A stretch of 40,105 nt of DNA from Clostridia bacterium. Its GTDB lineage: Bacteria > Bacillota > Clostridia > Christensenellales > UBA1242. A model generated the notes under the pieces. It made no database searches. It was given only the letters and a program-made list of their open reading frames with translations, and was not told the origin of the DNA. Shown one piece after another: positions 1-28,704 of the stretch (the first letter of the stretch is position 1; every line of letters begins with the position of its first letter). The position numbers were made by a program, and so were the translations under genes. Where the stretch lies: positions 1 to 40,105 of the forward strand of contig JAQUUD010000001.1 in the NCBI GenBank assembly GCA_028694075.1, given 5' to 3'.

Positions 1-35
1 CAATGCCTTTGGGCATTGCCCACGGCTTCCGCCGG
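1..35. repeat. 3' part of a nested-palindrome element, truncated by the window edge
   Basis: Hairpin caatgcc-tttg-ggcattg (1..18) is followed by cccacggcttccgccgg. This resembles the 3' closing-stem half of the element at 6112..6218 (cggcttcgccgg). A T-run follows. Confidence 0.35.
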
Positions 36-128
36 AACTTTTTAATGTTGTAATCATCTAATAATTATTACAATTTGATTTCATTTATATTTATTCGTAT
101 GTGCATCAATATTTATTATATACATAAA

Positions 129-169
129 AGCGGGCCTGTCAAACGAGCAAAGCGAAGCGGGCAAACCAC
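129..169. repeat. Solo copy of the GC-rich intergenic repeat unit
   Basis: agcgggcctgtcaaacgagcaaagcgaagcgggcaaaccac matches the GTCAAACG..CAAAGCGA.GCGGGC unit of the large arrays. It is a GC island in AT-rich spacer. Confidence 0.55.
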
Positions 170-173
170 TAAA

Positions 174-3146: not shown

Positions 3147-3730
3147 CGCGGACCAGCCAAACGAACAAAGCGAGCGGGCGTTAGCAGAGCGAGCGGGCGT
3201 TAGCAGGGCGAGCGGTCAGTTCCAGCCAAACGGACAAAGCGAGCGGGCGTTAGCAGGGCGAGCGGGCAGTTCCAGCCAAACGGACAAAGCGAGCGGGCGT
3301 TAGCAGAGCAAGCGGGCGTTAGCAGAGCGAGCGGTCAGTTCCAGCCAAACGAACAAAGCGAGCGGGCGTTAGCAGGGCGAGCGGGCGTTAGCAGGGCGAG
3401 CGGGCGTTAGCAGGGCGAGCGGGCAGTTCCAGCCAAACGGACAAAGCGAGCGGGCGTTAGCAGGGCGAGCGGGCGTTAGCAAAGCAAGCGGACAAGTCAA
3501 CCAAACGGACAAAGCGAGCGGGCGTTAGCAGAGCAAGCGGGCGTTAGCAGGGCGAGCGGTCAGTTCCAGCCAAACGGACAAAGCGAGCGGGCGTTAGCAA
3601 AGCAAGCGGACAAGCCAACCAAACGGGCAAAGCGAGCGGGCGAAGCGAAGCAAGCAGGGCGAGCGTCAAGCCAGTCAAACGGACAGAGCGAGCGGACAAA
3701 TCAACAGTCAAACGGGCTGGTCAAACAGGC
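3147..3730. repeat. GC-rich hierarchical tandem-repeat array A
   Basis: About 9-10 super-units. Each has a 22-nt punctuation (cagttccagccaaacggacaaa), then 1-3 copies of the 19-nt unit gcgagcgggcgttagcagg, then a 9-nt partial unit. The + strand is G-rich and T-poor. The array degenerates toward its right end. Confidence 0.9.
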
Positions 3731-3732
3731 TT

Positions 3733-3776
3733 TAAAAAAAATTAATCAGGTTACTGGTTAAGCGGTAACCTGATTA
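3733..3776 (-). terminator. Rho-independent terminator of rnhA
   Basis: A 12-bp stem taatcaggttac/gtaacctgatta (3743..3754 with 3765..3776) is followed on the minus strand by a T8 run. Confidence 0.75.
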
Positions 3777-3873
3777 CTTGGTAAATAAATTTATTTGATT
3801 TTTAAAAATATTTTAGATTTGTTACGCATCTTAAAAATTCAACAATAAAATTTGAGCGGAGCGATAATAAAAC

Positions 3874-4323
3874 TTACTTTTTTTCGCCAATAATTTTTTG
3901 AACTTCATTTCTTGCAAGTTCGTCACAGCGGTTGTTATAAATATTACTTGAATGCCCTTTTATTTTATGCCAATTAACTCGATGTTGTTTTGTTAATTCA
4001 ATTAATTGTTTCCAAAGGTCTTGATTTAAAACCGGCTTTTTATCAGAAGTTTTCCAATTGTTGTTTATCCAATTTGTCGTCCAACTTTGAATAAAAGCAT
4101 TAATAACATAAGCGCTGTCTGAATATACATCAACTATGCAAATTTCTTTTAAGGCTTGTAATCCTTTTATAATTGCCGTGAGTTCCATTCGGTTATTTGT
4201 TGTTTCAGGCTCACCGCCGGACAATTCTTTCAATGCTTTTTGATGCAATAAAATAGCGCCCCAGCCACCCGGGCCGGGATTATATGAACAAGCACCATCA
4301 GTATATAAAACAACTCTTTTCAT
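3874..4323 (-). CDS. rnhA: Ribonuclease HI
   Basis: MKRVVLYTDGACSYNPGPGGWGAILL... is the canonical RNase HI N-terminus, with the catalytic Asp at residue 9. The ORF was trimmed from 4353 to the ATG at 4323 because the extension lies inside the tRNA. Confidence 0.9.
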   Translation of the reverse strand: MKRVVLYTDGACSYNPGPGGWGAILLHQKALKELSGGEPETTNNRMELTAIIKGLQALKEICIVDVYSDSAYVINAFIQSWTTNWINNNWKTSDKKPVLNQDLWKQLIELTKQHRVNWHKIKGHSSNIYNNRCDELARNEVQKIIGEKK

Positions 4324-4397
4324 TGGCAGGGATGGAAGGAATCGAACCCTCAAAGCTGGTTTTGGAGACCAGAGCTATACCATTTAACTACATCCCT
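4324..4397 (-). tRNA. trnW: tRNA-Trp (anticodon CCA) with encoded 3' CCA
   Basis: The minus strand reads AGGGATGTAGTTAAATGGTATAGCTCTGGTCTCCAAAACCAGCTTTGAGGGTTCGATTCCTTCCATCCCTGCCA. The acceptor stem is AGGGATG/CATCCCT, the anticodon stem is CTGGT/ACCAG, the loop is CTCCAAA, and the T-loop is GGTTCGATTCC. Confidence 0.93.
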
Positions 4398-4925: not shown

Positions 4926-5951
4926 TTAATCATTTTTAAATGGTCGTCCGTTTTTTAATTTTTTTATTGTTTTATTATTTTTATTTTGCATTTCTTGATT
5001 TTGATTATCACTTTTAATTTTCTTTAATTTTTTTGGTTTTAATTTTTTTACAAAAACATTATCTAATCGCTCATCGAAAGTTGAATGATTTCTTTGCAAA
5101 ATTTGTGGATTTTTATTAATATCTCTTTTTGGTAGAGGTGATGCATCATACTGCACTTTTGGTCTATGCTCAGAATAAACAATCAAACTGTTTGTTGCAA
5201 TTTCAATTTCATTGCGTTTTAATTCATTAAACAAAACTTCTTGCATATCAATTTCGGCTTTATCGCAATATTCTGACACTGTCCACGCTCTTACTTCAAC
5301 ATTAATTTTATTATCATTTATTTCTTTAATAAATAAATTTGGTTCTGGGTTGGTTAAAATTTTTTCATTTGATAAAAGTGTAGAAATTGCAATCTCTCTT
5401 AATTTTTTGATATCAGTATTAAGAGTTACGCTGAATTTAATTGAAAAACGGCGTATTTCGTGATAATCCGAGTTTTCAATTTGAAAGTTGACAACATTTT
5501 TATTAGGAATAATAACCCTTTTATTATCCCAAGTGTCAATTAAAGTATTGAAGAATTGTATTGCAACAACCTTACCAGATATTCCATTTATTGTAACTGA
5601 ATCATCTTTTTTAAACGGTTTTGTAAAAATTAGAATAATGCCGTTTGCAAGTGAAGAAAGGCTGTCTTGAAGTGCTAATCCTGCCGCCAATCCAAATGCA
5701 GCCAAAATTGCCATTAAGCCCGTAACTGGAATGCCGACATTTTGAATTAGAATTAAAACCAATCCTGTATACAAAGAAACAACGATAATTCTGAAAATAA
5801 ACTTTTTCGAAAGTTCTTCCAACTTGCTTTTGTTAAGAATTTTATAAATTATTTTTTTTAATATAAAAATTATGATATAACCGATGACAAAAATTGCCAA
5901 TAATTCTAAAATTTTCAATCCGCCATTAACAAAAAATTGTTCCCAGTTCAT
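4926..5951 (-). CDS. Mechanosensitive ion channel (MscS family)
   Basis: TM region followed by an MscS beta-domain signature (LANGIILIFTKPFKKDDSVTINGISGKVVAIQFFNTLIDTWDNKRVIIPN). The start is taken at MNWEQF (ATG 5951, aaaggat upstream). The ORF could extend to 5978. Confidence 0.85.
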   Translation of the reverse strand: MNWEQFFVNGGLKILELLAIFVIGYIIIFILKKIIYKILNKSKLEELSKKFIFRIIVVSLYTGLVLILIQNVGIPVTGLMAILAAFGLAAGLALQDSLSSLANGIILIFTKPFKKDDSVTINGISGKVVAIQFFNTLIDTWDNKRVIIPNKNVVNFQIENSDYHEIRRFSIKFSVTLNTDIKKLREIAISTLLSNEKILTNPEPNLFIKEINDNKINVEVRAWTVSEYCDKAEIDMQEVLFNELKRNEIEIATNSLIVYSEHRPKVQYDASPLPKRDINKNPQILQRNHSTFDERLDNVFVKKLKPKKLKKIKSDNQNQEMQNKNNKTIKKLKNGRPFKND

Positions 5952-6111
5952 ATTTAATCCTTTAATTAAGATTATCACGCATTTAGTATTATTTTGTCAA
6001 GTTATTTGCTTTAAAATATATTTTTTGTTTATTTTAATATAAATTTCAAGATTTAGGTGTCTTTTTATTGTTTGTCAATTTATTATAATTTTAGCAGTGC
6101 CCGCTAATTAA

Positions 6112-6218
6112 CCGGCGAAGCCGGCGGGCGTTTGCCGTGCAAACGCCCGTGCGATATGCTTGGGGCAAGCCCCAAGCATATCGCCAAATCGCTTTCAGCG
6201 ATTTTTCGGCTTCGCCGG
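6112..6218. repeat. Nested perfect palindrome: 12-bp closing stem enclosing three hairpins
   Basis: Closing stem ccggcgaagccg (6112..6123) pairs with cggcttcgccgg (6207..6218). Arms are cgggcgtttgc-cgt-gcaaacgcccg, gcgatatgcttgggg-caa(g)-ccccaagcatatcgc and aaatcgct-ttc-agcgattt. Confidence 0.85.
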
Positions 6219-6470
6219 AGTTTCTTTAAAATACTCTCTTTGTTTAACAATTATTTATAAAATTCGGTTAGTAAATTTTGTAAATATTTTTTACACTAAA
6301 TCCCTCAGCATAATTCAATAAACTTTCAAACCACAACTATGCCTTATTAATAACAACTTTTTCCGATCACTCTCTTTGTTTAAAAAATTAATTAACAACA
6401 TTTAATATTTTCAAATTAAACTTGTTTATCGATTTTTTGCAAATTAATTTGTCAAACAAACAAACACAAA

Positions 6471-7892
6471 TCACAACCTAAGCGGAGCCTCCCCGCATAC
6501 ATTTTGTTCGCACTTGTTATAATACATATAAGCAACTTTATCGCCTCGTGTATTTTTTAAAATTTTTGCAAATATTTCTTTTGCCTGATGACATTTTCCC
6601 AAATTAAAATATCGCACTGCCTGTTCAAACTGAGTTTTATCACTTTCCATTTTATCTCGCTTTCTCTTATCATAATATTCCAAACTTTCAAAAAGTGAAG
6701 TATATTCCTTATCATCTTCAAATGTCAATGTGCCCACATATCTATATGCCAGCGGGTAATCAATTTTTAGCGAATTTAAAGTGCGTTTTGAAAAAATTAT
6801 TTTTGAGCCGAAATACTCATTAAAATTGTTCATTTTTGAAGCAAGATTAACAGCATCAGAAATGATTGTCGGGCTTTTTCTTTCTTCTTCCCCAACAATT
6901 CCAAAAACAACTTCGCCAGTGTTTACGCTTATGCCAACTTCTAAATTTGGTAAATTTTTGGTGTTCATATTTTTATTGTCAACTGCCTTGCTTATCGCAA
7001 CCGAACATTCAAGCGCATTTTCAGGTTTAATAAAAACCGCTAAAATGCCGTCACCCAAATATTTATCCACAAAACCGTTAAACTTCCGAATAATCGGAGA
7101 TACAACATTCAAATATGAATTAATATAATTAAAATTTTCTTCCAAACTTAATGTTGTGCTTGTTGATGTGGAATGATGAATATCAACAAACATTGTTGTA
7201 ATTTCTTTTTGCACCTGATTTCCAAGTTCCAATTCAAGAATACTGCTTTTGCCTAAAAATCTCAAAAATTGTTTAGGCACATATTTTTCATATTCTAAGT
7301 TTGTCTTTTTAATTATATTTTCTTTTTCCTTAAAGTTTTCATTTATTTTATTCAATGAATTTTCAATTTCCCCAAATTGTTTACTTCCGCCAATTTGAAT
7401 GTCGCTGGCAACTCTTCCGCTACTTAATCTGCGAACAGAATCTTGCACTTTTTTCAGCGGTCTGCAAGCAAATTTAAACGATATAAACAAAATTATCAAA
7501 TATGCAATAACGGCAAGTGCCAACCAAAGATATTGATTATTATTCACTTCATTTACATTCAAAAATTCGCGGACATACTCAGACTGCGTATCCTGCATAG
7601 TATTTAAATTCAATATATAAAAACTTAAAATAGCAAAAGTTAAGGTGACTGGAATTGTTACAAAAAACAAAACTCTATTAAACGGCTGAGAAGCAAGAAA
7701 CCTGAAAAACAACACATTAAAACTTACTGCGTTCAAAATTATAAATCCAAGCCCGATATAACCCAGCAATGAAAAATTAAAACTGATGCCGTTATCCAAA
7801 ATTATGCCGTCGGAAACAGCACCGCCCAAAAGCAAACTTAGTACGGTTGAAATGATGAATAATACAATCCAAATTTTCGTGCTTGTTCTCAT
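6471..7892 (-). CDS. Membrane-bound class III adenylate/guanylate cyclase (TM region, HAMP-like linker, cyclase domain, C-terminal TPR-like tail)
   Basis: Cyclase core MFVDIHHSTS...FVDKYLGDGILAVF...VGISVNTGEVVFGIVG, with multiple N-terminal TM helices. The start is uncertain: no candidate has an SD, and the ORF is open to 7973. Confidence 0.85.
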   Translation of the reverse strand: MRTSTKIWIVLFIISTVLSLLLGGAVSDGIILDNGISFNFSLLGYIGLGFIILNAVSFNVLFFRFLASQPFNRVLFFVTIPVTLTFAILSFYILNLNTMQDTQSEYVREFLNVNEVNNNQYLWLALAVIAYLIILFISFKFACRPLKKVQDSVRRLSSGRVASDIQIGGSKQFGEIENSLNKINENFKEKENIIKKTNLEYEKYVPKQFLRFLGKSSILELELGNQVQKEITTMFVDIHHSTSTSTTLSLEENFNYINSYLNVVSPIIRKFNGFVDKYLGDGILAVFIKPENALECSVAISKAVDNKNMNTKNLPNLEVGISVNTGEVVFGIVGEEERKSPTIISDAVNLASKMNNFNEYFGSKIIFSKRTLNSLKIDYPLAYRYVGTLTFEDDKEYTSLFESLEYYDKRKRDKMESDKTQFEQAVRYFNLGKCHQAKEIFAKILKNTRGDKVAYMYYNKCEQNVCGEAPLRL

Positions 7893-7991
7893 ATCACTTA
7901 TTTTGTGCTTTTTGTTTAAAGGTATACACATTAATTTTTGACATAATTTGATAAATTTTTCACATAATAACATAGAAAAGGAAATTTTAAT

Positions 7992-8531
7992 ATGAAAAAA
8001 GATAATATTTCACAAACCGATATATGTTTACCAAATGAATTACAAGAAAAAGAAACGCAAGAAAATACGCCTGAATTAACTATTAATACAACTGATCAGA
8101 AAAAAGAAAGTTTTATTAAATTTTTAACTTCGCTTTATCAAAATGCTTGCACAGCGATGCAAAGCATTGAAGATTTGCAACCAAAAGTTGAATGTGAAAA
8201 TTTAAAAAAAGAACTGTCAAATCAATTAACAAATTATGACATCATTGCACGGGAATGTGAAATGATTGCAAAAAGCGAAAATATTGATTTGAAAGACAAT
8301 AACATAATTGAAAAAATAAAACTTTGGGGTTCAATTAAAATGAGCACACTTGCGGACAAGTCCACACGACATATCACCGAACTGATGTTAATGGGCACTG
8401 TTTTTGGACTTATTCAAAATTTGAAAGATGCAGTTGATTATAAAAACATATGTCCGGAACTTGATGATTTGTGTCAAAAACTTACTGAATTAGAAGAAAC
8501 CAATTATCAAACTTTAAAAAATTTTATTTAA
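7992..8531 (+). CDS. Hypothetical helical protein
   Basis: 179-aa ORF with a good RBS (gaaaaggaaattttaatATG). It is predicted helical and I do not recognise a family. Confidence 0.6.
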   Translation: MKKDNISQTDICLPNELQEKETQENTPELTINTTDQKKESFIKFLTSLYQNACTAMQSIEDLQPKVECENLKKELSNQLTNYDIIARECEMIAKSENIDLKDNNIIEKIKLWGSIKMSTLADKSTRHITELMLMGTVFGLIQNLKDAVDYKNICPELDDLCQKLTELEETNYQTLKNFI

Positions 8532-8535
8532 AAAA

Positions 8536-8575
8536 ATAAAAAAAAGAATTGATTTCAATTCTTGTTATTTTTATG
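8536..8575. terminator. Bidirectional rho-independent terminator between convergent genes
   Basis: Stem aagaattg/caattctt with loop attt, an A-run before it and a T-rich tract after it. Confidence 0.5.
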
Positions 8576-8620
8576 AAAATTAATTTTTAACTTAATCATT
8601 AATGACATAAATTATTTTAA

Positions 8621-9709
8621 TTAAATAAACTCAAATTCTTTATCTGACGTTGTTGAATAAATTGTAATGCTTCCGTCATTATTTAAACATCTATTCAAGC
8701 CCATAAGTTTTCTTAAAGTTTTCATTGTGCTGTATGCGTGAATATCTTTATGTTCACCTTTTGCAAGAAAATACATATCAAGTTCTGTGTAAATATTTTC
8801 AACATCTAAAACCACAATAACCACTTTTTGTCCAGTTCTTGCAAGCACTGTTGCGTGATTTATTGCATTATTAACCGCTTCAAATGCATATAAAGGTTCA
8901 TTTTCAAAATAACTAACAAAATCTGTAAACTTTGTTATATATTTTTGAATTTTCAACAAACCGTCAGCTGGCACTCCAACTGCAACTATAAACAAAGAGT
9001 AGCCTTTTTTTACTAATTCATTTAACACATTTGCTTTTTTTTCAATAAATTCCATTCTGCTTGGGCTATAAATGTGTGTTTTTGAGCCTTCTTTAATATT
9101 ATCAACTATTTCAACATTGTCGTTTAATACGACATCTTTTATTGAGCAAAATTTTCGGAAACAATTTTCAAATTTTTTTCCGTTTAATTTTTCAATATCC
9201 CGTGCCATAAAATAATTTTTGCCTTTAACACCTGAAGCAATAACCGACAAATAATCTCCGGAAACTAAACCAAATTGTGCAACCAGCACATCAGGCACAT
9301 ATACCAAATCATCATCTGTTGTGCAAAAATAATAATCGTGATTGTGTTTTATGAGATAACCTTGCTTGTGTTCCATTACGCTATTAATTTCATTTTCTTC
9401 ATTTTGAGCAAACGGCAAGAACCTGTCAATTAAGATAGTATCCTTATTACGTTGTTCAGCAAAATCAAGAAGTTCCTTTGGTAATAAATCTTCCTGAAAT
9501 CCTCTTGCCATAAGTTTATTTTTAATCGGACGACCGGCTTTTTGTTTCACTGCCAATTTTTTTTCGCCTGACATAATTTGTATTATTTCATTTATCAACT
9601 TTTCTTTTTTCATAATTGTGGGAGAAGGCACGCCCCACATACGTGCGATGTTTCTCAGGTCGTGAACACCTAAATTTTCCAGTTGCAATTTTCTTTCTGC
9701 TAAATCCAT
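8621..9709 (-). CDS. Rho-derived protein: Rho_N domain, Rho-like RNA-binding OB fold and a degenerate RecA-like domain
   Basis: The N-terminus LENLGVHDLRNIARMWGV...KEKLINEIIQ resembles Rho_N. GYLIKHNHDYYF...LVYVPDVLVAQFGLVSGDYLSV parallels Rho GFGFLR...DIYVSPSQIRRFNLRTGD. The positions of Walker A (GSKTHIYSPSRMEFIE) and Walker B (VIVVLDVEN) lack GKT and the acidic catalytic context. Confidence 0.7.
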   Translation of the reverse strand: MDLAERKLQLENLGVHDLRNIARMWGVPSPTIMKKEKLINEIIQIMSGEKKLAVKQKAGRPIKNKLMARGFQEDLLPKELLDFAEQRNKDTILIDRFLPFAQNEENEINSVMEHKQGYLIKHNHDYYFCTTDDDLVYVPDVLVAQFGLVSGDYLSVIASGVKGKNYFMARDIEKLNGKKFENCFRKFCSIKDVVLNDNVEIVDNIKEGSKTHIYSPSRMEFIEKKANVLNELVKKGYSLFIVAVGVPADGLLKIQKYITKFTDFVSYFENEPLYAFEAVNNAINHATVLARTGQKVVIVVLDVENIYTELDMYFLAKGEHKDIHAYSTMKTLRKLMGLNRCLNNDGSITIYSTTSDKEFEFI

Positions 9710-9852: not shown

Positions 9853-9956
9853 GTCTATTGTATAAAATTATCATCGTGCTTTCAAAATTAAGTTGAAATA
9901 ACCATACTTTTAATATAATTATTAATTTTTTTAATCAAAAAAGTTGCATAATCGGT

Positions 9957-10282
9957 TGGCGAAGTCAAACAAATCAAACGGACAAGTCGAACAAGTCAAA
10001 CGGACAAAGCGAGCGGGCGAAGCGGAGCGGAGCAGGGCGAGCGGGCGAAGCGGAGCGAGCGGGCGGAGCAGGGCGAGCGGGCGAAGCGGAGCGAGCGGGC
10101 GGAGCAGGGCGAGCGGGCGAAGCGGAGCGAGCGGGCAACAGTCAAACGGACAAGTCGAACTGGTCAAACGGACAAGTCGAACTGGTCGAACGGACAAGTC
10201 GAACTGGTCGAACGGACAAGTCGAACTGGTCGAACGGACAAAGCGAGCGGACAACAAGTCAAACGGACAAGTCAAACAAAAA
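9957..10282. repeat. GC-rich tandem-repeat array B (two sub-arrays)
   Basis: Sub-array 1 has 18-nt units gcgagcgggcgaagcgga and gcgagcgggcggagcagg alternating, giving a 36-nt super-period with about 3.5 copies (10009..10136). Sub-array 2 has the 22-nt unit ggacaagtcgaactggtcgaac in about 5 copies (10146..10240). The array is flanked by GTCAAAC(A/G) motifs. The + strand is nearly T-free. Confidence 0.9.
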
Positions 10283-10386
10283 GCGGGCAGGGAAGCAAAT
10301 TTTTGACCTTCAAGTCAAAAATTTTCAGCAAAACTGATTCAAGTTTTGCTGAACAAGCCTTTAAAGGCTTGTTCTTCCCTGCCCGC
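10283..10386. repeat. Nested perfect palindrome: 13-bp closing stem enclosing three hairpins, abutting array B
   Basis: Closing stem gcgggcagggaag (10283..10295) pairs with cttccctgcccgc (10374..10386). Arms are aaatttttgac-cttcaa-gtcaaaaattt, cagcaaaact-gattca-agttttgctg and aacaagcct-ttaa-aggcttgtt. On the minus strand it is followed by TTTTTGTTTG. Confidence 0.88.
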
Positions 10387-10533
10387 AATTTAGTTGGTAA
10401 AAATCCTAAAATATTAAATTATCTTTACAATAATCAATCAAATATTAATCTTACTTCAATTTAATTATTCTCAATATACTTTTTAAATTAAAATTAAAAT
10501 TCTTTACTGAACTTTTTATAAATAAATTTTTTT

Positions 10534-10599
10534 ATAAACTAAATTTTCTTATAAACTAAATTTTCTTATAAACTAAATTTTCTTATAAACTAAATTTTC
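10534..10599. repeat. AT-rich 17-nt tandem repeat, about 3.9 copies
   Basis: The unit ataaactaaattttctt is repeated perfectly at 10534, 10551 and 10568, with a partial copy at 10585. It lies just downstream of the ypeB stop. Confidence 0.9.
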
Positions 10600-10615: not shown

Positions 10616-12175
10616 TTACATCAGTAAGTTTCCATTGTCTGTTTGAATAACTTTTAAAATATTCTCTTCTTTTCCGTTGCTTGAGTTAATATAAAAATAA
10701 TAATCATCACCGCCATATTTGCAAACAAATTCGTGACAAAGCACTTCTCTGCCGTAATCAAGAGGGATTAATGCCACTCTTTCTTGCGAAATTACATATT
10801 TCGCACCAATTTTGTTTCTTGCTGTATCAACCGACACACTGCCTTTTTGAAGACTTCTTTCAACGTGATTCATATAATATGAAGTTGCTTCATAACCCAA
10901 TACAATTCCATTATATAAATCAATTTTTAGTTTTACAAGGTCAGGATATAAAATTATATCATTTTGGACAGGTGCAAGATTAATAAAGGCATTTCCGTTT
11001 ACTGTGTCACTCCAAACAACTTTCATATTTTCAAGTTTATTCTTTTTTGCAAAGTCTAATGCAATTGCTTCAGCATTTTTTAAGGTAAGTTTTTTGCCTT
11101 TACTTCCTGACTCATTTTGATTAATGTTTTTTTCCTCAATTTCTTCTGTATCAACTTTATTCTCCACTATTTCGCTTTGTGTGGTTTCTTTGACATTTTT
11201 TTCACTTACATCAGGATCTTCTTTATTAAATTTAGTTGAATTTGTATTTTTATTTTTAAAATTTTCATAACTTTCGTTTTCTTCCTTATTTGCGTTATAA
11301 GCAGAAAGGGTCAATAAATGTCCGCCAACCTTGCTCATTTGCACAAAAGCGACTATATCTTTTTCATTTTCCTTTGCCTGAACTCTAAAATTATATGTTT
11401 GGAAATTGCCATTTGATTCATTTTCAAGTTCTACCATTTCATCGGTGTAATCACTGAAAATCTCTAGCAAAGTTGCTTTTGCTGTGCCTTCATCAACAGT
11501 GTTGCCTTTCAAGCCCTTAACTTCTTTTTTAACCTGAGAATCTGAGAACGGACCATCATAAATTAGAACCGGATATTCAACTCCTTCGGGCTTTATTGAT
11601 TTCATATCAATCGTGAAACCATTAAAATCACCATTTAGGCTATTCGATGTTTTTACAATACTATAACCATTCCACATATCTTTGGTCATTAGATTCAATG
11701 AATCTTTCATATCTAAAACGGAATCATAAATATTTTCAAGTTCTTTGATTTGGGTTGAACTTAATTTTTGCCCTTTGACCAAATTTTTACTTAAAGTTTC
11801 GGTGTAACCGCCAACTTGATTTATGAAAGCAATGCCTTCATCAAGGCCATTCATTGAATAAGGCAAATTGTTTAAATTTTCTTGTGCCATAACTGCATTT
11901 CTGCTGATTTGGTCAAGCATTTTTGCCTGATACTCTTCGTCAGTTGATGACAAGGTTTTGGCTAATTTGGTTTCAGTGTTGTTTATATTATCCACCAAAT
12001 CATAAAAATTCTTTTGATAAACATCTTCCAAATCCAGTGCAGTGTTCATTGCGTTTTGCATAGTTACTGCATAAAGAATTAATGTGATTAACAAAAGTGC
12101 ACTTAAAATCCAGACTGCAATCACCAGCGCTTTGTTATTTTTTATAATTTCTTTTGTCTTGCTTTTTTCTGCCAT
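10616..12175 (-). CDS. ypeB: Germination protein YpeB
   Basis: N-terminal TM anchor, YpeB-like middle region and C-terminal PepSY-like repeats. It lies directly downstream of sleB as in Bacillus and Clostridium. The RBS is aaaaaggagatt. Confidence 0.85.
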   Translation of the reverse strand: MAEKSKTKEIIKNNKALVIAVWILSALLLITLILYAVTMQNAMNTALDLEDVYQKNFYDLVDNINNTETKLAKTLSSTDEEYQAKMLDQISRNAVMAQENLNNLPYSMNGLDEGIAFINQVGGYTETLSKNLVKGQKLSSTQIKELENIYDSVLDMKDSLNLMTKDMWNGYSIVKTSNSLNGDFNGFTIDMKSIKPEGVEYPVLIYDGPFSDSQVKKEVKGLKGNTVDEGTAKATLLEIFSDYTDEMVELENESNGNFQTYNFRVQAKENEKDIVAFVQMSKVGGHLLTLSAYNANKEENESYENFKNKNTNSTKFNKEDPDVSEKNVKETTQSEIVENKVDTEEIEEKNINQNESGSKGKKLTLKNAEAIALDFAKKNKLENMKVVWSDTVNGNAFINLAPVQNDIILYPDLVKLKIDLYNGIVLGYEATSYYMNHVERSLQKGSVSVDTARNKIGAKYVISQERVALIPLDYGREVLCHEFVCKYGGDDYYFYINSSNGKEENILKVIQTDNGNLLM

Positions 12176-13607: not shown

Positions 13608-13642
13608 AAAAAACTTTGTTTTGTAAATAATAGTTGATTAAA

Positions 13643-13743
13643 ACGGCGACTAAAAGGAAATTTTGCAAACGCAAAATTTTTCAAGATAAAATCTTGGGCT
13701 TGATTTTAAGCGTACGCTTAAAATCAAGCCTTTTAGTCGCCGT
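13643..13743. repeat. Nested perfect palindrome: 15-bp closing stem enclosing three hairpins
   Basis: Closing stem acggcgactaaaagg (13643..13657) pairs with ccttttagtcgccgt (13729..13743). Arms are aaattttgc-aaac-gcaaaattt, caagat-aaa-atcttg and the 32-nt perfect palindrome gcttgattttaagcg-ta-cgcttaaaatcaagc. Confidence 0.88.
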
Positions 13744-13929
13744 GTTCGCTTTCGTGCGATTTAATATGCTATATGTTCGTTCACTTGAAGTTAGAAAAAA
13801 TGCCAAAAGTAAATATACTTTCGACATTTTTTTAATCGTGTTTTTTGATTTTTTTTTAATAAAAACTAGATGTCTTTTATTATTAATTTATAATTACAAT
13901 TATATGTTTTTTATTAATGAATAAAATTT

Positions 13930-19526: not shown

Positions 19527-19572
19527 AAACCAGCCCGCCCGCTCGCGACAAGTTAATGCACACTCGCCAATT
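19527..19572. repeat. Solo GC-rich repeat core in inverted orientation
   Basis: ccagcccgcccgctcgcgac carries the reverse complement of GCGAGCGGGCGGG. It lies upstream of a + strand gene. Confidence 0.5.
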
Positions 19573-19870: not shown

Positions 19871-21175
19871 ATGTTTATGTCAAATAAAGGAATGCAAAAA
19901 CTTATTGCAAGCGGAATCGCATTGCTTATGTCGTTGACAGCACTGTTTGTGACAGCTTGGGCAATTTTAAGCACTGAAAAAGTGGGTTTGAGTGTTAATA
20001 TATCTTTTGACCCAGCAGTCACCACCAAAGTCTATTTGGCAACGGACAGTAGTTCGGCGGTGGATTTCAAACAACCGAATTCAACTGTAACTGCTGAAAA
20101 CTTTGCAAAAGCAAATTCAGCTTTGATTTTAGACACCAAAGATGGAAACTCACTTCAAAAAGACGCATTTGAACTATTGGGTGCGGACAATGGTTTGAAA
20201 TGCGATGCAAACGGCGAAATGGAGTTTTATGTTTTTGTTGAAAATTACAGCGAAACTGAGAGCGTCTATTATCGTGCAAATATAAACTTTGTTGGCACGG
20301 GCGAACAAGTTGCACCATTTAGCACAGTAACTAACCCTAGTTTTGAAACCGCCGGAACTGCCTTGGGAGTTGAAAGCCCTTCCATAAGCCTGCTTATCTT
20401 TAAAATTCTATCTGATAGTGACACGGGATTAAACGCAAACACAATTCAAATTGAGATTGATTTATCTACATCATTCGCTTCAATATTGGGTTTAGCACAA
20501 TATACTTCTGGAAATTATAGTGGGCTTTTTTATATTGACATGGGGGAATATCCACAAACACAAGAAATAAACACTGAAATAATATCAGGTATAACTGGTG
20601 AACCCGATGCAAATAATTATTATACAAGTTCAGTAAATGGAGAAAAATATGCTAGAAGAGGCACCGATCCAAATTATACTTACTATTTAGTCGAACCAGT
20701 AAGATGGCTTGTTATAGGAAATAGCGGAACTTATGCTGATTTTCCTAATAAAAACTTTGATACTTTAGGATCTAACCAACTGCTCTTAATTAGCGAAAAT
20801 TTAATATCTGCATCAACTTATAGTGTCAATTTAAATAATCCATTAGGAAATACAATATTTAGTGATTTAGAAAAAAATAAATTAAGCAAGTTCGGAAATA
20901 ATCAATATCTTTACTCGTTGTCAAAAGACACAGAAGGTTATCCATATAGAATCGATTATTATTTAACTGTAAATCAAAGTAGATGTTCACCAACAGCATA
21001 TGCTTCTTCAATATTAAATTTATATGCTTCTGATAGATTTTGGGTACAAAGTCAAAATTATGCAGCAACGCTGAAAAAATATGCAATTCATAGTAATATG
21101 GGAACCTATTATTCTTCTGTTTCTGAAACTACTAATATTCTTTTAGTTCGCTCTACAATCATTTTAAATTTTTAA
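19871..21175 (+). CDS. Secreted or anchored protein: conserved N-terminal beta-rich domain plus DUF6273-like C-terminal domain (paralogue 1)
   Basis: RBS ggaggatttacaaaATG and signal anchor MQKLIASGIALLMSLTALFV. The N-terminal ~200 aa are highly similar to the 23759 gene. The C-terminus has EPVRWLVIGN, NQLLLISE, RFWVQS and VRSTIILNF, resembling the DUF6273 motifs W.VL, LLLS, WWLRS and GVRPA. Confidence 0.8.
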   Translation: MFMSNKGMQKLIASGIALLMSLTALFVTAWAILSTEKVGLSVNISFDPAVTTKVYLATDSSSAVDFKQPNSTVTAENFAKANSALILDTKDGNSLQKDAFELLGADNGLKCDANGEMEFYVFVENYSETESVYYRANINFVGTGEQVAPFSTVTNPSFETAGTALGVESPSISLLIFKILSDSDTGLNANTIQIEIDLSTSFASILGLAQYTSGNYSGLFYIDMGEYPQTQEINTEIISGITGEPDANNYYTSSVNGEKYARRGTDPNYTYYLVEPVRWLVIGNSGTYADFPNKNFDTLGSNQLLLISENLISASTYSVNLNNPLGNTIFSDLEKNKLSKFGNNQYLYSLSKDTEGYPYRIDYYLTVNQSRCSPTAYASSILNLYASDRFWVQSQNYAATLKKYAIHSNMGTYYSSVSETTNILLVRSTIILNF

Positions 21176-21409: not shown

Positions 21410-21503
21410 TTCGCCGGCAGAGGTTGGCTTTGAAAAAGCCAACGCAAACACGAAAGTGTTTGCTGGGATTTGAGATTTTCTCAAATCCCGCTCTGCCGGC
21501 GAA
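21410..21503. repeat. Nested perfect palindrome: 13-bp closing stem enclosing three hairpins
   Basis: Closing stem ttcgccggcagag (21410..21422) pairs with ctctgccggcgaa (21491..21503). Arms are gttggcttt-gaa-aaagccaac, gcaaacac-gaaa-gtgtttgc and gggatttgaga-ttt-tctcaaatccc. A T-rich tract follows on the + strand. Confidence 0.88.
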
Positions 21504-23430: not shown

Positions 23431-23758
23431 ATTACTTAAAGTTCCTTTATTTTGTATTAATTATTATATCTTTTATTAAAAACAATGTCAACAGTGGTTT
23501 TTGAAAGAAATTTTAATTTTAGACACAAAAGCAAAAATTTGTAAAAAAAGTTCTTGAAATTGAAATTTGAGTAGACTTTTGCAAAATTTTGTGATATTTT
23601 TATATAAAGAACAAATAATAAAGTAAAATGACAAACAATACATAGATAGATATAACAAAAAAATTAATTAATATAAAAATTAAACGAAAATGTTAGGATA
23701 ATAAATATAAAACATAAGTTTTGATTAAAAAATATAAAAACTTAAAATGGAGTATTTA

Positions 23759-25114
23759 ATGATAAGATTTAATAAAGGAATGCAAAAACTTATTGCAAGC
23801 GGGCTGGTTATTATTTTTTGTTGTATAACTTTGTTTGCAGGAATACTTGCAATATTGAGTAATACTAAAATGGGGCTAAGCGTTAATGTGTCATTTGATT
23901 CAGCGGTAACCGCCAAGGTTTATCTTGCTACAAATAGTAATACTGATATAAATTTTAAGCAACCAAATGATTCTGTTACTGCTGAAAATTTTGCAAAACC
24001 AAATTCTGCCATAATTTTTAATACATATAACATTGACACAAATGGTGGAAAAACAAAAACTTCGTTTGAGCAGTTAGGCGCTAATGAAGACTTGGGCTTA
24101 AAATGCGATGCCAACGGCGAAATGGAATTTTATGTTTATGTGGAAAATTACAGCACCACGGAAATTATTTATTATCGGGCGAATATTGACTTTGTTGGCA
24201 CGGGCGAACAAAGTGCACCTTTTAGCACAGCAACCAATCCTTTCTACGAAACTGCCGATACTGCTGTGGAAGTGAACGACCCTTCAATAAGCCTGCTAAC
24301 ATTTAAAATCAGTTCGGATAATGCCACAGGTATAACTGCAAATGCAATCAGAATTGAAATTGATTTACAAACGGAATTACCTTGGGAGTGGTTAGGTGTA
24401 ACGGGCAAATATACTTCAGGCAGTTATAACGGGCTTTATTATGTCGATTTTGGCGAATATCCACAAAGTTTATATGGAACCACACAGCCAACTGGAACAA
24501 TTTATAATTCCACTTCAGGATATTATGAGAATCTTGAAACAGGTAAAAAATATGAATTATATAGTACTAAATACTATAATGTTGAACCTGTTAGATGGCT
24601 TGTTATTGGAAATGGTAATAATTATAATAATGCTAATTTAGGATTTCCAAATATAAATTCTGATAATCTGGCATCGAATCAACTGCTTTTGTTCAGTGAA
24701 AAAATTATTGCAGGCTCTACATATGGTAGTGGGGCTAATGTTTTATGGACGAATGTAAGTTTATATAGCACCTTATCTAATATGAAAGACAAAATGTTTA
24801 GTCCGGAAACAAATTTGGGAACATTCGATGATGGTTCACAATTATCCATTTTATCTTCCACCATGCTATCTTATAAATATTCTAATTATTATTCAGGAGC
24901 ATTAGCTTTAGCATTAACTTGCACTAAAACCAGCTGGGCAACTACAATTGGCTTTGATCTTGCAGAATATTATTGGCTTAGGCGAGTACAAACATCAGCT
25001 GTTTTTTCGGGTTATACTTATACAGATGGTGCAAGATATACTACCGGAGCCGTTAGTGAAATTCGCACCACTTATGTTGCAGGTATTCGCCCGATTATTA
25101 TTTTAAATGTTTAA
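23759..25114 (+). CDS. Secreted or anchored protein: conserved N-terminal beta-rich domain plus DUF6273-like C-terminal domain (paralogue 2)
   Basis: The start is taken at ATG 23759 (ggagtatttaATG). The ORF track begins at 23747, inside the RBS. It contains EPVRWLVIGN, NQLLLFSE, YYWLRR and AGIRPIIILNV. Confidence 0.8.
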   Translation: MIRFNKGMQKLIASGLVIIFCCITLFAGILAILSNTKMGLSVNVSFDSAVTAKVYLATNSNTDINFKQPNDSVTAENFAKPNSAIIFNTYNIDTNGGKTKTSFEQLGANEDLGLKCDANGEMEFYVYVENYSTTEIIYYRANIDFVGTGEQSAPFSTATNPFYETADTAVEVNDPSISLLTFKISSDNATGITANAIRIEIDLQTELPWEWLGVTGKYTSGSYNGLYYVDFGEYPQSLYGTTQPTGTIYNSTSGYYENLETGKKYELYSTKYYNVEPVRWLVIGNGNNYNNANLGFPNINSDNLASNQLLLFSEKIIAGSTYGSGANVLWTNVSLYSTLSNMKDKMFSPETNLGTFDDGSQLSILSSTMLSYKYSNYYSGALALALTCTKTSWATTIGFDLAEYYWLRRVQTSAVFSGYTYTDGARYTTGAVSEIRTTYVAGIRPIIILNV

Positions 25115-25378: not shown

Positions 25379-25909
25379 CTAAACATTACATTCAATAATG
25401 CCGAGGCGGTTGTCGTTGCGGTTATATAAGATGTTAACTTTGCCAGTTTCGACATTAAGGAACACATAAAAAGTATGCCCTACTGCTTCCATATAATCTT
25501 TTGCATCTTCAATTGTTATCGGATCCAAATTAAACACTTTCTTTTTTATTATTTCTTTGTTTATTTCTTCTGGCTTTTTATCCAGGAATAGCAAATCTGA
25601 ATAATCAATTGCAATATTTCTGAACTTATCACGCTTTTTCTCAAATTCCTTAATTACTTGTCTTTCAATTTTCGGCAAAGCAAAATCAATATTTTCATAC
25701 ATATTTTCGCCTACAACTTCCGCCCTATAAAGCAAACCTTTATTTGTTACAGTAACTTCAAGTTTGTTTGTTTTATTTTCCTGTTTGCAAACAACTCGTG
25801 CAATTCCATCTTTTCCAAAATATCTGTCCAATTTGGATATTTTCTTATTAATAATATCCCTTAATTTATCACTTATTTCATAATTTTTTTCTGTTAATTC
25901 TATTTTCAT
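25379..25909 (-). CDS. hpf: Ribosome hibernation promoting factor, long form
   Basis: N-terminal S30AE domain (MKIELTEKNYEISDKLRDIINKKISKLDRYF) and C-terminal dimerisation domain (PITIEDAKDYMEAVGHTFYVFLNVETGKVNILYNRNDNRLGII). Confidence 0.92.
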   Translation of the reverse strand: MKIELTEKNYEISDKLRDIINKKISKLDRYFGKDGIARVVCKQENKTNKLEVTVTNKGLLYRAEVVGENMYENIDFALPKIERQVIKEFEKKRDKFRNIAIDYSDLLFLDKKPEEINKEIIKKKVFNLDPITIEDAKDYMEAVGHTFYVFLNVETGKVNILYNRNDNRLGIIECNV

Positions 25910-25958: not shown

Positions 25959-26216
25959 GGTCTAACGGGCAAATCAAACGGGTCAAACGGACCGAGCGAG
26001 CGGGCGAGCCAGAGTCTAACGGGCAATTCAAACGGGTCAAACGGACCGAGCGAGCGGGCGAGCCAGAGTCTAACGGGCAATTCAAACGGGTCTAACGGAC
26101 CGAGCGAGCGGGCGAGCCAGAGTCTAACGGGCAATTCAAACGGGTCTAACGGACCGAGCGAGCGGGCGAGCCAGAGTCTAACGGGCAATTCAAACGGGTC
26201 TAACGGACAAATCAAA
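25959..26216. repeat. GC-rich tandem-repeat array C (54-nt period, about 4.5 copies)
   Basis: The unit gtctaacgggcaattcaaacgggtc(t/a)aacggaccgagcgagcgggcgagccaga has ACCGAG phase markers at 25991, 26045, 26099 and 26153. It shares the GCGAGCGGGCG and CAAACGGG/TAACGGAC motifs with arrays A and B. Confidence 0.9.
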
Positions 26217-26242: not shown

Positions 26243-28684
26243 TTATTTTATTTCGCTTTCAAAAATCAGTTTTTCATTTTGGCTATCTATAATCACAATT
26301 CCTGATTTTTTTAACTCGCCTATCAAGATTTTTTCTGCAATTGTATCTTCAATTTCTTGTTGAATAAATCTTTTTAGCGGTCTTGCACCAAACTCCGGAT
26401 TTTTACAACCATTTTTTACTACTAAATTAAGTGCTTCTTCGGTTATTTTAAGTTCCAAGTCTTGCTTTCTCAATCGGATATTGATATTATTAATTAATAT
26501 TTTTGCAATTTTGGTAAGTTCGTCAGGTCCAAGCGGTTTGAACACGCAAATCACATCAATGCGGTTAATAAATTCCGGTTTAAACTTTTTCTTTAACGCA
26601 TCAAAATAAATCTGTTTAGACTTTTCAAAATCATCATCGAAACTGTTTTCATTAAACCCAAGTTCTTTATTTTTAACTAATGTTGCACCGATATTACTTG
26701 TCATAATTATTATTGAGTTGCGAAAACTTACAACTCTGCCTTGGCTGTCGGTCAATCTTCCATCATCTAAGATTTGAAGCAGTGAATTGAAAATTTCGGG
26801 GTGTGCCTTTTCAATTTCATCAAACAAGACAACTGAATATGGCTTGCGTCTAATCTGTTCGGTTAGTTGACCGCCTTCTTCATATCCCACATATCCAGGC
26901 GGTGCACCGATAAGTTTTGCAACCGAATGCCCTTCGGTATATTCGCTCATATCTAACCGAATTATATTATTTTCATCATCAAACATTGCTTCAGCAATTG
27001 CTTTTGAAAGTTCAGTTTTTCCGACACCAGTTTGCCCCATAAACAAGAATGAACCGATTGGTTTTTTGATATCTTGCAAGCCAACTCGAGATCTTCTTAT
27101 TGCCCTTGCAACTGCGTCAACTGCTTCTTCCTGCCCAATAACTCGCTTATGAATGATTTCTTCCAAATGCATAAGTTTTTCTTTTTCGCTTTCGGTTATT
27201 TTCGTAACCGGAATGCCTGTCCATTTTGAAACAACTTCGGCAATTTCATTCGCACCGATTGAGCCTGTTGATTTTTTCGTTTTCTTATTAAATTCGGCAG
27301 TTAAAACATCAAGTTCGTTTTCAAGATTTATAATTTGAGATTGCAATTTTGCTGCTTTTTCATAATTTCTTTGAATGCTTGCCTCATCTCTATTAGCAGA
27401 AAGTTGCTTGATTTTTTCTTCCTTATCCCGTATTGCAACTGGCTTTAAGTTAAAATTTACTTTTGCCTTACTGCTTGCTTCATCAATCAAATCTATTGCT
27501 TTATCCGGCAAATACCTGTCCATAATATATCTGTCAGAAAGTTGCGCCGCCGCCTCTATTGCTTCGTTTGAAATTTTGATTTTATGAAATGCTTCATAAC
27601 TATCTTTTAAACCTTTTAATATTTCCATTGTCTCTTCTACTGTTGGTGGATTTACAAAAATTGGTTGAAATCTGCGTTCTAAAGCCTTGTCTTTTTCAAT
27701 AAACTTTCGATATTCATCAGTTGTTGTTGCTCCGATTGTTTGAAGTTCGCCTCTTGCGAGATACGGCTTCAACATATCAGCGGGGCTTGTTTCGCCCTTT
27801 TCAGAGCCTGCCTGAGCAAGCGTATGAATTTCATCAATGAAAACAATGATATTTTTTTGTGCAATTATTGTTTCAATTGCGTTTTTAAGGCGTTCTTCCA
27901 TACTTCCACGATATTTTGTGCCCGCCATAAGCCCGCCGATTTCAAGAGAAAAAATGATTTTGTCCGTAAGTATCTCTGGTACATTGCCACTTACGATTGC
28001 GAGTGCCAGTCCTTCAACAACCGCTGTTTTTCCAACACCCGCTTCACCAATTAAAACCGGATTGTTTTTTGTTTTACGGCAAAGAATTTCAATTATTCTT
28101 TCAATTTCTCCTTCTCTGCCAATGACGGGGTCGATTTTGCCTTCTTTGGCTTTTAAAGTTATATCAGTTCCCATTGAAAGCAATTTTTCCGGCAAACCGC
28201 TTTTTGAATTTAATGTAGGGTTTTCTTCGCCAATTTCCTTCCTTTCGCCTTGCAAAATAATTAATATTTTTGTTTTTAAATCATTTATATTGATGTGAAA
28301 ATAACTGATTAAAAGCCTGACTGCAAAACTGTTAACACTGTTTAAAAGAGCATAAAAAATGTGTTCTGTTCCAATAAAAGAATGTCCAAGTTGCATTGCA
28401 ATTTTCTGTGCAATTCTTATCATTTCTTTAACACGGGGAGTTAATTCAACCTGCTCGCCTATTACTTCAATAAAATCAGAGTTGTCGCCAAAAATCGCTT
28501 CCAGACTTTCGGTTGTGACATTATATTCGAATAAAATTTGACAAGACGCACAATCTTCAACACAAGTCAGACCATACAAAATATGTTCAGTTCCGACCTG
28601 CAAATTGCCAAACTTTACAGCCACATCACTTGCTTTTTTTAATACTTTTTCAACATTATCAGAAAAAGAATTAAGATTGCTCAT
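26243..28684 (-). CDS. clpC: ATP-dependent Clp protease ATP-binding subunit ClpC
   Basis: Clp_N repeats, two AAA+ modules (GEAGVGKT and GQTGVGKT) and a UVR-like linker. The start was trimmed to ATG 28684 (gaaaggagaacttATG). Confidence 0.93.
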   Translation of the reverse strand: MSNLNSFSDNVEKVLKKASDVAVKFGNLQVGTEHILYGLTCVEDCASCQILFEYNVTTESLEAIFGDNSDFIEVIGEQVELTPRVKEMIRIAQKIAMQLGHSFIGTEHIFYALLNSVNSFAVRLLISYFHININDLKTKILIILQGERKEIGEENPTLNSKSGLPEKLLSMGTDITLKAKEGKIDPVIGREGEIERIIEILCRKTKNNPVLIGEAGVGKTAVVEGLALAIVSGNVPEILTDKIIFSLEIGGLMAGTKYRGSMEERLKNAIETIIAQKNIIVFIDEIHTLAQAGSEKGETSPADMLKPYLARGELQTIGATTTDEYRKFIEKDKALERRFQPIFVNPPTVEETMEILKGLKDSYEAFHKIKISNEAIEAAAQLSDRYIMDRYLPDKAIDLIDEASSKAKVNFNLKPVAIRDKEEKIKQLSANRDEASIQRNYEKAAKLQSQIINLENELDVLTAEFNKKTKKSTGSIGANEIAEVVSKWTGIPVTKITESEKEKLMHLEEIIHKRVIGQEEAVDAVARAIRRSRVGLQDIKKPIGSFLFMGQTGVGKTELSKAIAEAMFDDENNIIRLDMSEYTEGHSVAKLIGAPPGYVGYEEGGQLTEQIRRKPYSVVLFDEIEKAHPEIFNSLLQILDDGRLTDSQGRVVSFRNSIIIMTSNIGATLVKNKELGFNENSFDDDFEKSKQIYFDALKKKFKPEFINRIDVICVFKPLGPDELTKIAKILINNINIRLRKQDLELKITEEALNLVVKNGCKNPEFGARPLKRFIQQEIEDTIAEKILIGELKKSGIVIIDSQNEKLIFESEIK

Positions 28685-28704
28685 AAGTTCTCCTTTCATT
28701 TAGT

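Follow-up and report, generated by a model that had tools for sequence, protein, structure and literature searches.

The window analysed here is a 40,105-nucleotide stretch of chromosomal DNA from a Clostridia bacterium (the complete contig JAQUUD010000001.1, positions 1 to 40,105), which is AT-rich (~31% GC) and carries housekeeping and sporulation genes with PHR96_ locus tags. Its gene content includes Tex, RNase P RNA (class A), tRNA-Trp, RNase H, MscS, a cyclase, YpeB, SleB, SpoIIR, SipL, NifS, Hpf, a ClpC-like protein, RecX, RpoA and the ribosomal proteins S4 and L17. The spacers between these genes contain five copies, here called E1 to E5, of a nested palindrome that folds as a cloverleaf, with one closing stem around three hairpins. 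All five copies are intergenic, 36-253 nt downstream of a stop codon, and a cloverleaf is the first strong structure to follow ypeB, the gene at 19871-21175, spoIIR and the cyclase gene. Stabilities are given as minimum free energy (MFE) and as z-scores.

10283..10386, minus strand (the ypeB-sense strand): cloverleaf E2, an element ~100 bases long on the 3′ side of the spore gene ypeB.
10273..10282, minus strand: T-run TTTTTGTTTG, directly 3′ of the 3′ closing arm of E2.
6112..6218, no strand assigned: cloverleaf E1, with a 12-bp closing stem CCGGCGAAGCCG and hairpins of 11, 16 and 8 bp; MFE -82.1 kcal/mol, z = -12.7.
13643..13743, no strand assigned: cloverleaf E3, with a 13-15-bp closing stem and hairpins of 9, 6 and 17 bp; z = -11.6.
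21410..21503, plus strand: cloverleaf E4, with a 13-bp closing stem and hairpins of 9, 8 and 11 bp, followed by TTTTATTTT; z = -12.5.
1..35, no strand assigned: cloverleaf E5, truncated by the contig end to its last hairpin and 3′ closing arm.

Both sequence and folding bear out the proposal of an initial annotation of this DNA that a 13-bp closing stem and three perfect hairpins occupy 10283-10386. The GC-rich closing stem of E2 pairs 10283-10295 with 10374-10386 (arms GCGGGCAGGGAAG and CTTCCCTGCCCGC). It encloses hairpin 1 at 10297-10324 (11 bp; AAATTTTTGAC CTTCAA GTCAAAAATTT), hairpin 2 at 10325-10352 (11 bp; TCAGCAAAACT GATTCA AGTTTTGCTGA) and hairpin 3 at 10353-10372 (10 bp; ACAAGCCTTT AAAGGCTTGT), the last of which becomes an 8-bp stem with a tetraloop when folded. 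Of the hairpin lengths given earlier (11, 10 and 9 bp) only the first stands, although the difference is trivial. The junctions measure 1, 0, 0 and 1 nt, with a single C after the 5′ closing arm and a single T before the 3′ arm. Folded as RNA, E2 has an MFE of -62.3 kcal/mol (z = -11.8), and none of 200 shuffled sequences folds equally well; the opposite strand folded as DNA forms the mirror structure at -42.6 kcal/mol (z = -11.6). Two other predicted features are also present, namely the T-run TTTTTGTTTG that follows E2 on the minus strand and a core, AGCGGGCA, that the 5′ closing half shares with the adjoining tandem array. The strain relatives L005 and L004 (related contigs are identified here by L numbers) reproduce E2 either identically or with one apical nucleotide different. 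Cloverleaf elements were recovered in independent assemblies (JGI, ENA and Logan), and they are therefore not assembly artefacts.

We wrote a scanner for perfect nested palindromes and ran it on the window, with dinucleotide shuffles and unrelated contigs as controls; the DNA examined overall comprised the 40-kb contig and ~190 kb of related contigs. The scanner finds exactly four complete cloverleaves in the window (E1 to E4), each with 41-47 perfect base pairs. By comparison, the next-best nested palindrome in the window has 27 bp, the best among 200 dinucleotide shuffles of the window has 33 bp, and 244,766 bases of unrelated contigs yielded no match. This 245-kb negative control consisted of viral contigs retrieved by pattern scans with the closing stems of E2, E5 and E4, scans that gave chance matches in GC-rich contigs but no cloverleaf; a further scan of viral contigs with the middle hairpin of E4 gave no match. 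The earlier count of at least four complete copies plus a truncated one at 1..35 is thereby upheld, and the frequency in shuffled sequence, which had been named as grounds for abandoning the claim, does not approach that in the window. The truncated copy is completed by a 97% strain relative, in which the full E5 spans L024 2907-3004 and a 16S rRNA gene lies ~650 nt further on.

Folding of all intergenic regions gave a bimodal distribution, with the cloverleaves between -55 and -83 kcal/mol and all remaining structures no more stable than -34 kcal/mol, and a search for decayed copies in the window at a lowered folding threshold found none. Across all family members MFE ranges from -46 to -82 kcal/mol and z from -8 to -13, and the architecture does not vary, a single closing stem enclosing exactly three hairpins within 81-107 nt. 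Pairwise similarity among the window copies is at noise level except for E1/E5, whose closing stems are alike (CCGGCGAAGCCG vs CCGGCGGAAGCCG), and, weakly, for E2/E3/E4. The closing arms of E1 are small hairpins themselves, a case of nested palindromy. E1 is located between the stop codon of the cyclase gene and the MscS promoter, while E3, which is identical in strain L007, is located between the convergent genes spoIIR and sipL.

Short-read assemblies tend to break in or near these elements. The window starts inside E5, two related contigs (L008 at 4963 and L009 at 2767) end inside the 17-bp palindrome of E3, and the close Tex homologues (P0139-P0145) are all on contigs of 2.7-4.5 kb. These repeats probably fragment the metagenome-assembled genomes (MAGs) of the clade.

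Recognisable homologues of three elements occur in relatives with 64-88% protein identity, which defines sequence families across genomes for E2, E4 and E5. The earlier statement that arm sequences are unrelated thus holds within the window, where copies are mostly unalignable, but fails across genomes. The E2 orthologue in L010, whose YpeB is 78% identical, lies directly 3′ of ypeB at 11872-11961; its closing stem and two of its hairpins are perfect, whereas the middle hairpin is decayed and contains G.U. In L001 (64%) a paralogue-like copy of E2 forms a perfect cloverleaf at 8410-8490 between the convergent genes sipL and spoIIR. Both the L010 and the L001 copies differ from the window element by compensated changes. 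The element at this sipL/spoIIR site is orthologous between L001 and L011 (65%), where it appears at 8586-8650 as a weaker, two-hairpin (Y-shaped) version with a T6 run (MFE -25.9 kcal/mol, z = -4.1). The closing stem of the L011 version, GGCAAGAAG/CTTCTTGCC, is compensated relative to that of L001, GGCAGGAAG/CTTCCTGCC, and only the sipL-sense strand forms its G.U pairs; this version resembles either a simpler or a degenerate form of the cloverleaf. Imperfect or decayed members with wobble pairs thus exist, which speaks against the earlier view that no evolved structure is involved.

After ypeB itself, L011 has a simple hairpin followed by T (11715-11755), with a stem, GCAAGAAA, that resembles the E2 closing arm. 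The ypeB terminator of L001 (11615-11655) is likewise a simple hairpin whose stem, GCAGGGAAGAA, resembles the E2 closing arm and whose 3′ arm TTCTTGC is unmatched. At both sites, therefore, simple or two-hairpin terminators whose stem sequences are related occur among the more distant relatives. Judging from these sequences, the simple ypeB hairpins may be the ancestral form or an intermediate in which one arm has changed. We rejected the alternative that the three-hairpin core alone was inserted into pre-existing terminator loops, as closing stems accompany the core in the L001 and L010 copies. A 14-nt match between the middle hairpin of the L001 copy and window positions 13610-13623, beside E3, was too AT-rich to be relied on.

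The E4 homologue, at L010 15818-15911 beside a tRNA cluster, differs from the window copy by five doubly changed pairs and by paired indels. The E5 family consists of window 1-35, L024 and an inverted copy in L025 (2627-2716; Tex 88% identical), in which the hairpin order is reversed and the loops are reverse-complemented relative to L024. The L025 arrangement would have arisen either through inversion of what lies between the closing arms or through insertion in the opposite orientation. Cloverleaves are absent from the examined contigs of L002, L003, L006 and L026.

The stems of these families have evolved in a distinctive manner. Aligned elements are 0.81-0.94 identical, compared with 0.40-0.54 at 4-fold sites of neighbouring genes in the same genome pairs, where random expectation is 0.30. 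Paired changes in orthologous spacers, the evidence that the initial annotation had recommended seeking, are indeed present: helix-by-helix pairwise comparisons revealed eight pairs in which both bases had changed and ~8 one-nucleotide indels with a counterpart on the opposite arm (for example, GGGAAG/CTTCCC vs GGAAG/CTTCC, and TTTTTGAC/GTCAAAAA vs TTTTGAC/GTCAAAA). The sole one-sided stem change is in the decayed L010 hairpin. Among ~370 predicted pairs in nine elements, 364 are Watson-Crick and six are G.T, the latter optional and at helix ends, while loops diverge freely between homologues. The earlier view that the elements are neither a sequence-conserved family nor an evolved structure is contradicted by these families and their double-sided compensatory changes.

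A closer comparison is provided by strain L004, in which a single nucleotide of the 104 in E2 differs, at the apex of a hairpin. In the same comparison the neighbouring spacer shows 13 mismatches and 7 gap blocks in 171 nt, and 17% of ypeB 4-fold sites differ; the binomial probability of one change or fewer in 104 nt at p = 0.17 is ~9e-8. The strain comparisons of E3 (L007) and E2 (L005) were set aside as uninformative on selection, because the flanks are identical as well. Since the stems outlast 4-fold sites, the loops are free and stem changes are double-sided, pairing is under purifying selection.

Several features of these elements resemble intrinsic terminators. In the sense of the upstream gene, a run of five or more T residues follows the 3′ closing arm immediately in all four members of the E2 family (window, L010, L001 and L011), which agrees with the earlier suggestion of an elaborate terminator for sleB-ypeB. 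The E4 family has a T-run after the 3′ closing arm in both of its members (TTTTATTTT in the window and the L010 E4-like copy). The GC-rich stem and T tract of an intrinsic terminator are therefore found in the E2 and E4 families, but not in E1 or in gene-sense E5. All five window copies are positioned as intrinsic terminators are, after a stop codon and before the next promoter, and E3, like bidirectional terminators, lies between convergent genes. Unlike known intrinsic terminators, the elements form a four-way junction of 81-107 nt with -46 to -82 kcal/mol, some copies (E1 and E5) lack a T-run or come after another terminator, and their stems are conserved, with compensated changes, over distances at which terminators normally turn over. 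The 78-nt “loop” within the closing stem of E2 is itself three hairpins and falls outside the 3-8 nt loop of a simple stem-loop; a scan for consensus terminators did not call this stem.

Tandem arrays adjoin most of the elements, and the following are present in the window.

9962..10277, minus strand: GC-rich tandem arrays adjoining E2, with plus-strand units AGCGGAGCGAGCGGGCGA and GTCGAACGGACAAGTCGAACTG.
10516..10599, no strand assigned: AT-rich 17-mer array of five units, in the spacer between the ypeB stop codon and E2.
121..170, no strand assigned: two GCGGGC-type units between the Tex terminator hairpin (177-220) and E5.
3153..3686, minus strand: largest GC-rich array, of the same motif family, without a cloverleaf.
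25960..26208, minus strand: GC-rich 54-mer array of 4.6 units, of the same motif family, between clpC-like 26243-28699 and hpf 25379-25909.

The arrays at 9962..10277 are C-rich on the gene-sense strand, and the 96-97% strains L004 and L005 have them with other copy numbers and another order of units. The motif TGCCCGCT is common to these arrays and to the outer end of the E2 closing arm. The AT-rich 17-mer array is retained in L005 (1280-1350) but reduced to one unit in L004 (2750-2780). The largest array is flanked by a canonical terminator hairpin (3740-3779) and by the RNase P RNA promoter. More generally, the GC-rich unit family (GCGGGC/AGCGAGCGGGCG, CAAACGGACAA) occurs as long arrays, as a mini-array and as a solitary copy (19527-19550). 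Its units are all intergenic with the gene-sense strand C-rich, and they are found upstream of the promoters or starts of RNase P RNA, a Rho_N-domain gene and hpf. The 22-mer unit GTCGAACGGACAAGTCGAACTG (array 10141-10241) has two GTCGAA cores in a sporulation-gene neighbourhood; these resemble the Spo0A-box core, TGNCGAA, but other arrays have GTCAAAC or GTCTAAC and the resemblance may be coincidence.

Cloverleaves of relatives are also flanked by arrays, made of different units (L010 11690-11870, 11965-12121 and 15600-15815; L025 2727-2805). The L010 units are degenerate closing-arm copies, ACAGGCAGGGAA, and a 21-mer, TCCCGCGCTTCCAACCAAGTA, whereas L025 has a 26-mer in three copies. In L010 the closing-arm copies make up the array upstream of the E2 orthologue. 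Flanking arrays whose units differ in this way suggest local seeding, with slippage at the hairpins as the source. Towards the window lineage, arrays and elaborate cloverleaves become commoner in parallel, and arrays are nearly absent in L001 and L011.

We regard it as about an even call that the cloverleaves constitute a family, confined to this clade, of branched intrinsic terminators or insulators that work in either orientation, in which selection and template-switch correction together keep pairing strictly Watson-Crick. On transcription, the three inner hairpins would fold first and unite the halves of the 10-15-bp GC-rich closing stem. Beside a T/U run, as in E2 and E4, the closed stem would act as an intrinsic-terminator hairpin and, being very stable, as a 3′ end or barrier to read-through that insulates the next promoter. 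Pairing limited to Watson-Crick pairs would allow equal folding from either strand, so that the elements could serve in either orientation and between convergent genes and could tolerate inversion. Simple terminators may have been elaborated into branched ones in the window lineage. The slippage-prone replication that would help to correct the stems would also generate the flanking tandem arrays, some of them built from element arms. As judged from sequence, termination or insulation would be the selected function. Insulation upstream of strong promoters is possible for E5, which precedes an rRNA operon, and for the L010 E4-like copy, which precedes a tRNA cluster.

The strictness of the pairing implies a second process. 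Quasipalindrome template switching has been demonstrated experimentally in bacteria and has been proposed to create and repair RNA stems (PMC7202029, PMC8794818). We infer that hairpin-templated correction during replication contributes to stem perfection, because the loss of one pair from -60 to -80 kcal/mol barely alters stability and selection on each pair seems weak. Consistent with template switching, changes are often multi-base or indels and are exactly mirrored, the GCG/CGC by which the E2 stem is extended at its outer end repeats the motif of the neighbouring array (TGCCCGCT), and strain-variable tandem arrays adjoin most elements. The fold-back synthesis that the initial annotation had offered as an origin is partly in line with these observations, inasmuch as it resembles the correction invoked here. 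Arm-to-arm correction alone is insufficient, however, because unbiased correction would not slow drift.

Some observations weigh against a role in termination or insulation. Neither E1 nor the E5 family in the Tex sense has a convincing gene-sense T-run, and in L024 as in L025 a canonical Tex terminator already lies ahead of E5, which makes E5 dispensable for ending this gene. A four-way junction of -60 to -80 kcal/mol far exceeds the needs of termination, and 81-94% stem conservation over saturated divergence is unusual for terminators. Also, related copies are found in differing contexts (the L010 E4-like copy by tRNAs and the L001 E2-like copy at sipL/spoIIR), which fits mobility too.

Such mobility is the essence of the main rival explanation, wherein the cloverleaves are selfish, non-autonomous mobile repeats whose folded single strand is read by an enzyme and whose terminator activity is incidental. 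Repetitive extragenic palindromic (REP) sequences, BIMEs and REPINs of Proteobacteria, which are mobilised by RAYT/TnpA-REP (PMC8266576), offer one model. Like the cloverleaves they are extragenic, GC-rich, palindromic and multi-copy, are located between transcription units and can show nested palindromy, and REPs are known as mRNA 3′ stabilisers, terminators and gyrase sites. However, REPs are 20-40 nt long, imperfect and sequence-conserved per genome, with a 5′ GTAG-like tetranucleotide, whereas the cloverleaves are 81-107 nt, perfect, three-branched and mostly unalignable, with no common terminal motif and no RAYT seen in the window. The closing stem could equally be viewed as the 10-15-bp perfect terminal inverted repeat of a miniature inverted-repeat transposable element (MITE), but no target-site duplication is present at nine cloverleaves, no orthologous site was recovered empty with clean edges, and no insertion sequence was seen. 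S. aureus STAR elements are small intergenic repeats that are GC-rich relative to the genome. Pneumococcal BOX, RUP and SPRITE are interspersed repeats with stable folds (PMC3049150). Like the cloverleaves, STAR, BOX, RUP and SPRITE are small, modular and intergenic in low-GC Gram-positive bacteria, and they are transcribed together with neighbouring genes, yet each of these families is defined by its sequence, folds imperfectly and lacks a closed three-hairpin junction. An analogy, and only that, exists with mitochondrial GC clusters, double-hairpin elements and repetitive hairpin-forming elements, GC-rich hairpins in AT-rich spacers that are regarded as mobile or selfish (PMC4478555, PMC2800124). 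They too occur as single units and arrays, with several sequence families per fold and often perfect stems, but they are organellar and have one or two hairpins, whereas the cloverleaves are chromosomal, form a closed three-hairpin junction and occupy at least two orthologous sites.

Five extragenic GC-rich copies in 40 kb of an AT-rich genome, beside solitary and tandem GC-rich units, speak for mobility, since they match the arrangement reported for GC clusters and hairpin elements of mitochondria (PMC4478555, PMC2800124). Homology between genomes ends exactly at the closing stem and T-run, contexts differ (L010 15818 near tRNAs vs window 21410; L001 8410 vs window 10283), the E5 core is inverted between L024 and L025, distribution in the clade is patchy, assemblies break at the elements, and recent spread would explain high identity at saturated synonymous sites. 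Mobility nonetheless seems unlikely to us, if still a serious contender. The nine elements have neither target-site duplications nor a common flanking motif, and most copies from a single genome cannot be aligned with each other, in contrast to REP or MITE families. Orthology of E2 between the window and L010, and of the sipL/spoIIR element between L001 and L011, points to long residence rather than turnover, and the argument from context is weak, as on the contigs examined a differing context may only reflect several old paralogues. A Pfam scan of the 30 window proteins identified no transposase, RAYT, integrase or resolvase, the Pfam-annotated loci of relatives likewise have no transposase, RAYT or integrase, and none of the Pfam families assigned to the called genes of L010 and L011 is a Y1/HUH transposase. 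A related possibility, which we hold to be rather doubtful, is a new class of structure-defined bacterial element with unrelated sequences and one architecture, in which a structure-specific enzyme or process acts on the folded single strand of either polarity and hairpin-templated copying both keeps arms perfect and creates new ones, and which spreads within the clade together with GC-rich arrays. It would be a bacterial analogue of mitochondrial GC clusters or of the structure recognition seen with attC and REP. A purely mutational origin, in which replication slippage and quasipalindrome template switching generate the elements without any selected function and hairpins and arrays grow only for want of anything that eliminates them, would account for the arrays that adjoin most of them and vary between near-identical strains, for the L010 upstream array of closing-arm copies, for the match between the outer GCG/CGC extension of E2 and the neighbouring array unit, for multi-base and indel changes mirrored as exactly as template switching predicts (PMC8794818), and for the joint rise of arrays and cloverleaves from the nearly array-free L001 and L011 towards the window lineage. 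It is made improbable by stems that remain 81-94% identical while 4-fold sites fall to 40-54% and loops are free, which unbiased correction cannot bring about, and by the constant architecture (closing stem plus three hairpins in 81-107 nt) and the conserved T-run. Strict Watson-Crick pairing without internal G.T in ~360 pairs, by which both strands fold equally, and the free orientation of the E5 family would also suit a signal at the DNA level. Such a signal might be a cruciform or junction target of a structure-specific recombinase or nuclease, as the initial annotation had suggested, a site for gyrase or for absorbing supercoils, or, upstream of strong promoters, a site of replication pausing or primosome assembly; strong negative supercoiling would be expected where E5 precedes the rRNA operon promoter and the L010 E4-like copy precedes the tRNA cluster. 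In integron attC sites a folded single strand similarly defines the site, and long attC sites may have a branched variable terminal structure. However, attC sites have R″/R′ cores (RYYYAAC...GTTRRRY), extrahelical bases and imperfect pairing in cassettes beside intI, whereas the cloverleaf termini are GCGGGC, CCGGCG, ACGGCG and TTCGCC, pairing is perfect without extrahelical bases or R-box motifs, and the surrounding genes, which serve housekeeping and sporulation, include no integrase. We judge a DNA-level signal quite improbable, since in addition arms of 6-17 bp with loops of 3-6 nt are on the short side for a cruciform to extrude stably, the window encodes no cognate enzyme, and the decayed L011 member pairs via G.U on one strand only, which points to RNA. 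Independent genes for small structured RNAs, tRNA-like or with a four-way junction and transcribed from their own promoters, would be compatible with a conserved, covarying junction and with a size of ~80-107 nt typical of small RNAs. This explanation has very little chance of being correct, as no unpaired nucleotide or loop motif is conserved (loops evolve fastest), a consistent upstream promoter is lacking, ARAGORN and Rfam give no match, orientation flips while context is unchanged, and perfect helices with almost no single-stranded information are atypical of functional noncoding RNAs.

With gathering thresholds, Rfam models detect only RNase P and tRNA-Trp in the window; at permissive E-values the best overlapping matches score 27.6 and 23.7 bits against gathering thresholds of 50 and 64, and so the elements belong to no known Rfam family, an identity that the initial annotation had named as a way in which its claim might fall. 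ARAGORN calls tRNA-Trp (4324-4397) alone in the window and nothing tRNA-like on the elements, a blastn search with E2 found no match among 72,556 plasmids, and the literature searched contains no description of cloverleaf or branched bacterial repeats or terminators. The elements belong with structured extragenic palindromic or terminator elements, and what is unusual is their invariant architecture and cleanly compensated evolution.

If the cloverleaves are indeed terminators or insulators, then this clade has elaborated its intrinsic terminators into closed four-way junctions usable from either strand. They would offer an unusually clean natural case of helix evolution by double-sided changes, including paired indels, with no wobble intermediates, and hence a test bed for separating selection from template-switch correction in helix maintenance. 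They are also potential strong, sequence-diverse and orientation-independent terminator parts for AT-rich Firmicutes. If the elements are instead mobile, they would represent a new structure-defined class of bacterial repeat. In practice, the elements and hypervariable GC-rich arrays break short-read assemblies of these organisms and attract spurious calls of open reading frames (ORFs).

Mechanically called ORFs of 96-120 aa at 9931-10306 and 13634-13924 traverse the GC-rich arrays, E2 and E3. These ORFs are probably spurious, and the numbering of deposited accessions suggests that extra ORFs were called in these spacers. In L026 (Tex 79%, 518-kb contig), where 22 kb contain no cloverleaf, a type I-C-like CRISPR-Cas system (Cas5d, Csd1, Cas7, Cas4, Cas1 and Cas2) and a repeat array occupy 5500-9500, just upstream of Tex.

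The gene at 19871-21175, which precedes E4, forms a paralogous pair with 23747-25114; both encode proteins of 430-480 aa without Pfam domains. At least four further paralogues of 19871-21175 are on other contigs of the MAG (PHR96_01510, _02400, _02475 and _02930), and DUF6273 is present in some distant relatives of this protein family. The longest RNase H ORF (3874-4397 region, TTG start at 4353) overlaps tRNA-Trp (4324-4397) on the same strand, and its true start codon is probably downstream of the TTG at 4353. Ribosomal protein L17 (35884-36393) has 169 aa, and the 97-position Pfam profile is stretched across residues 16-169, which implies a large insertion.

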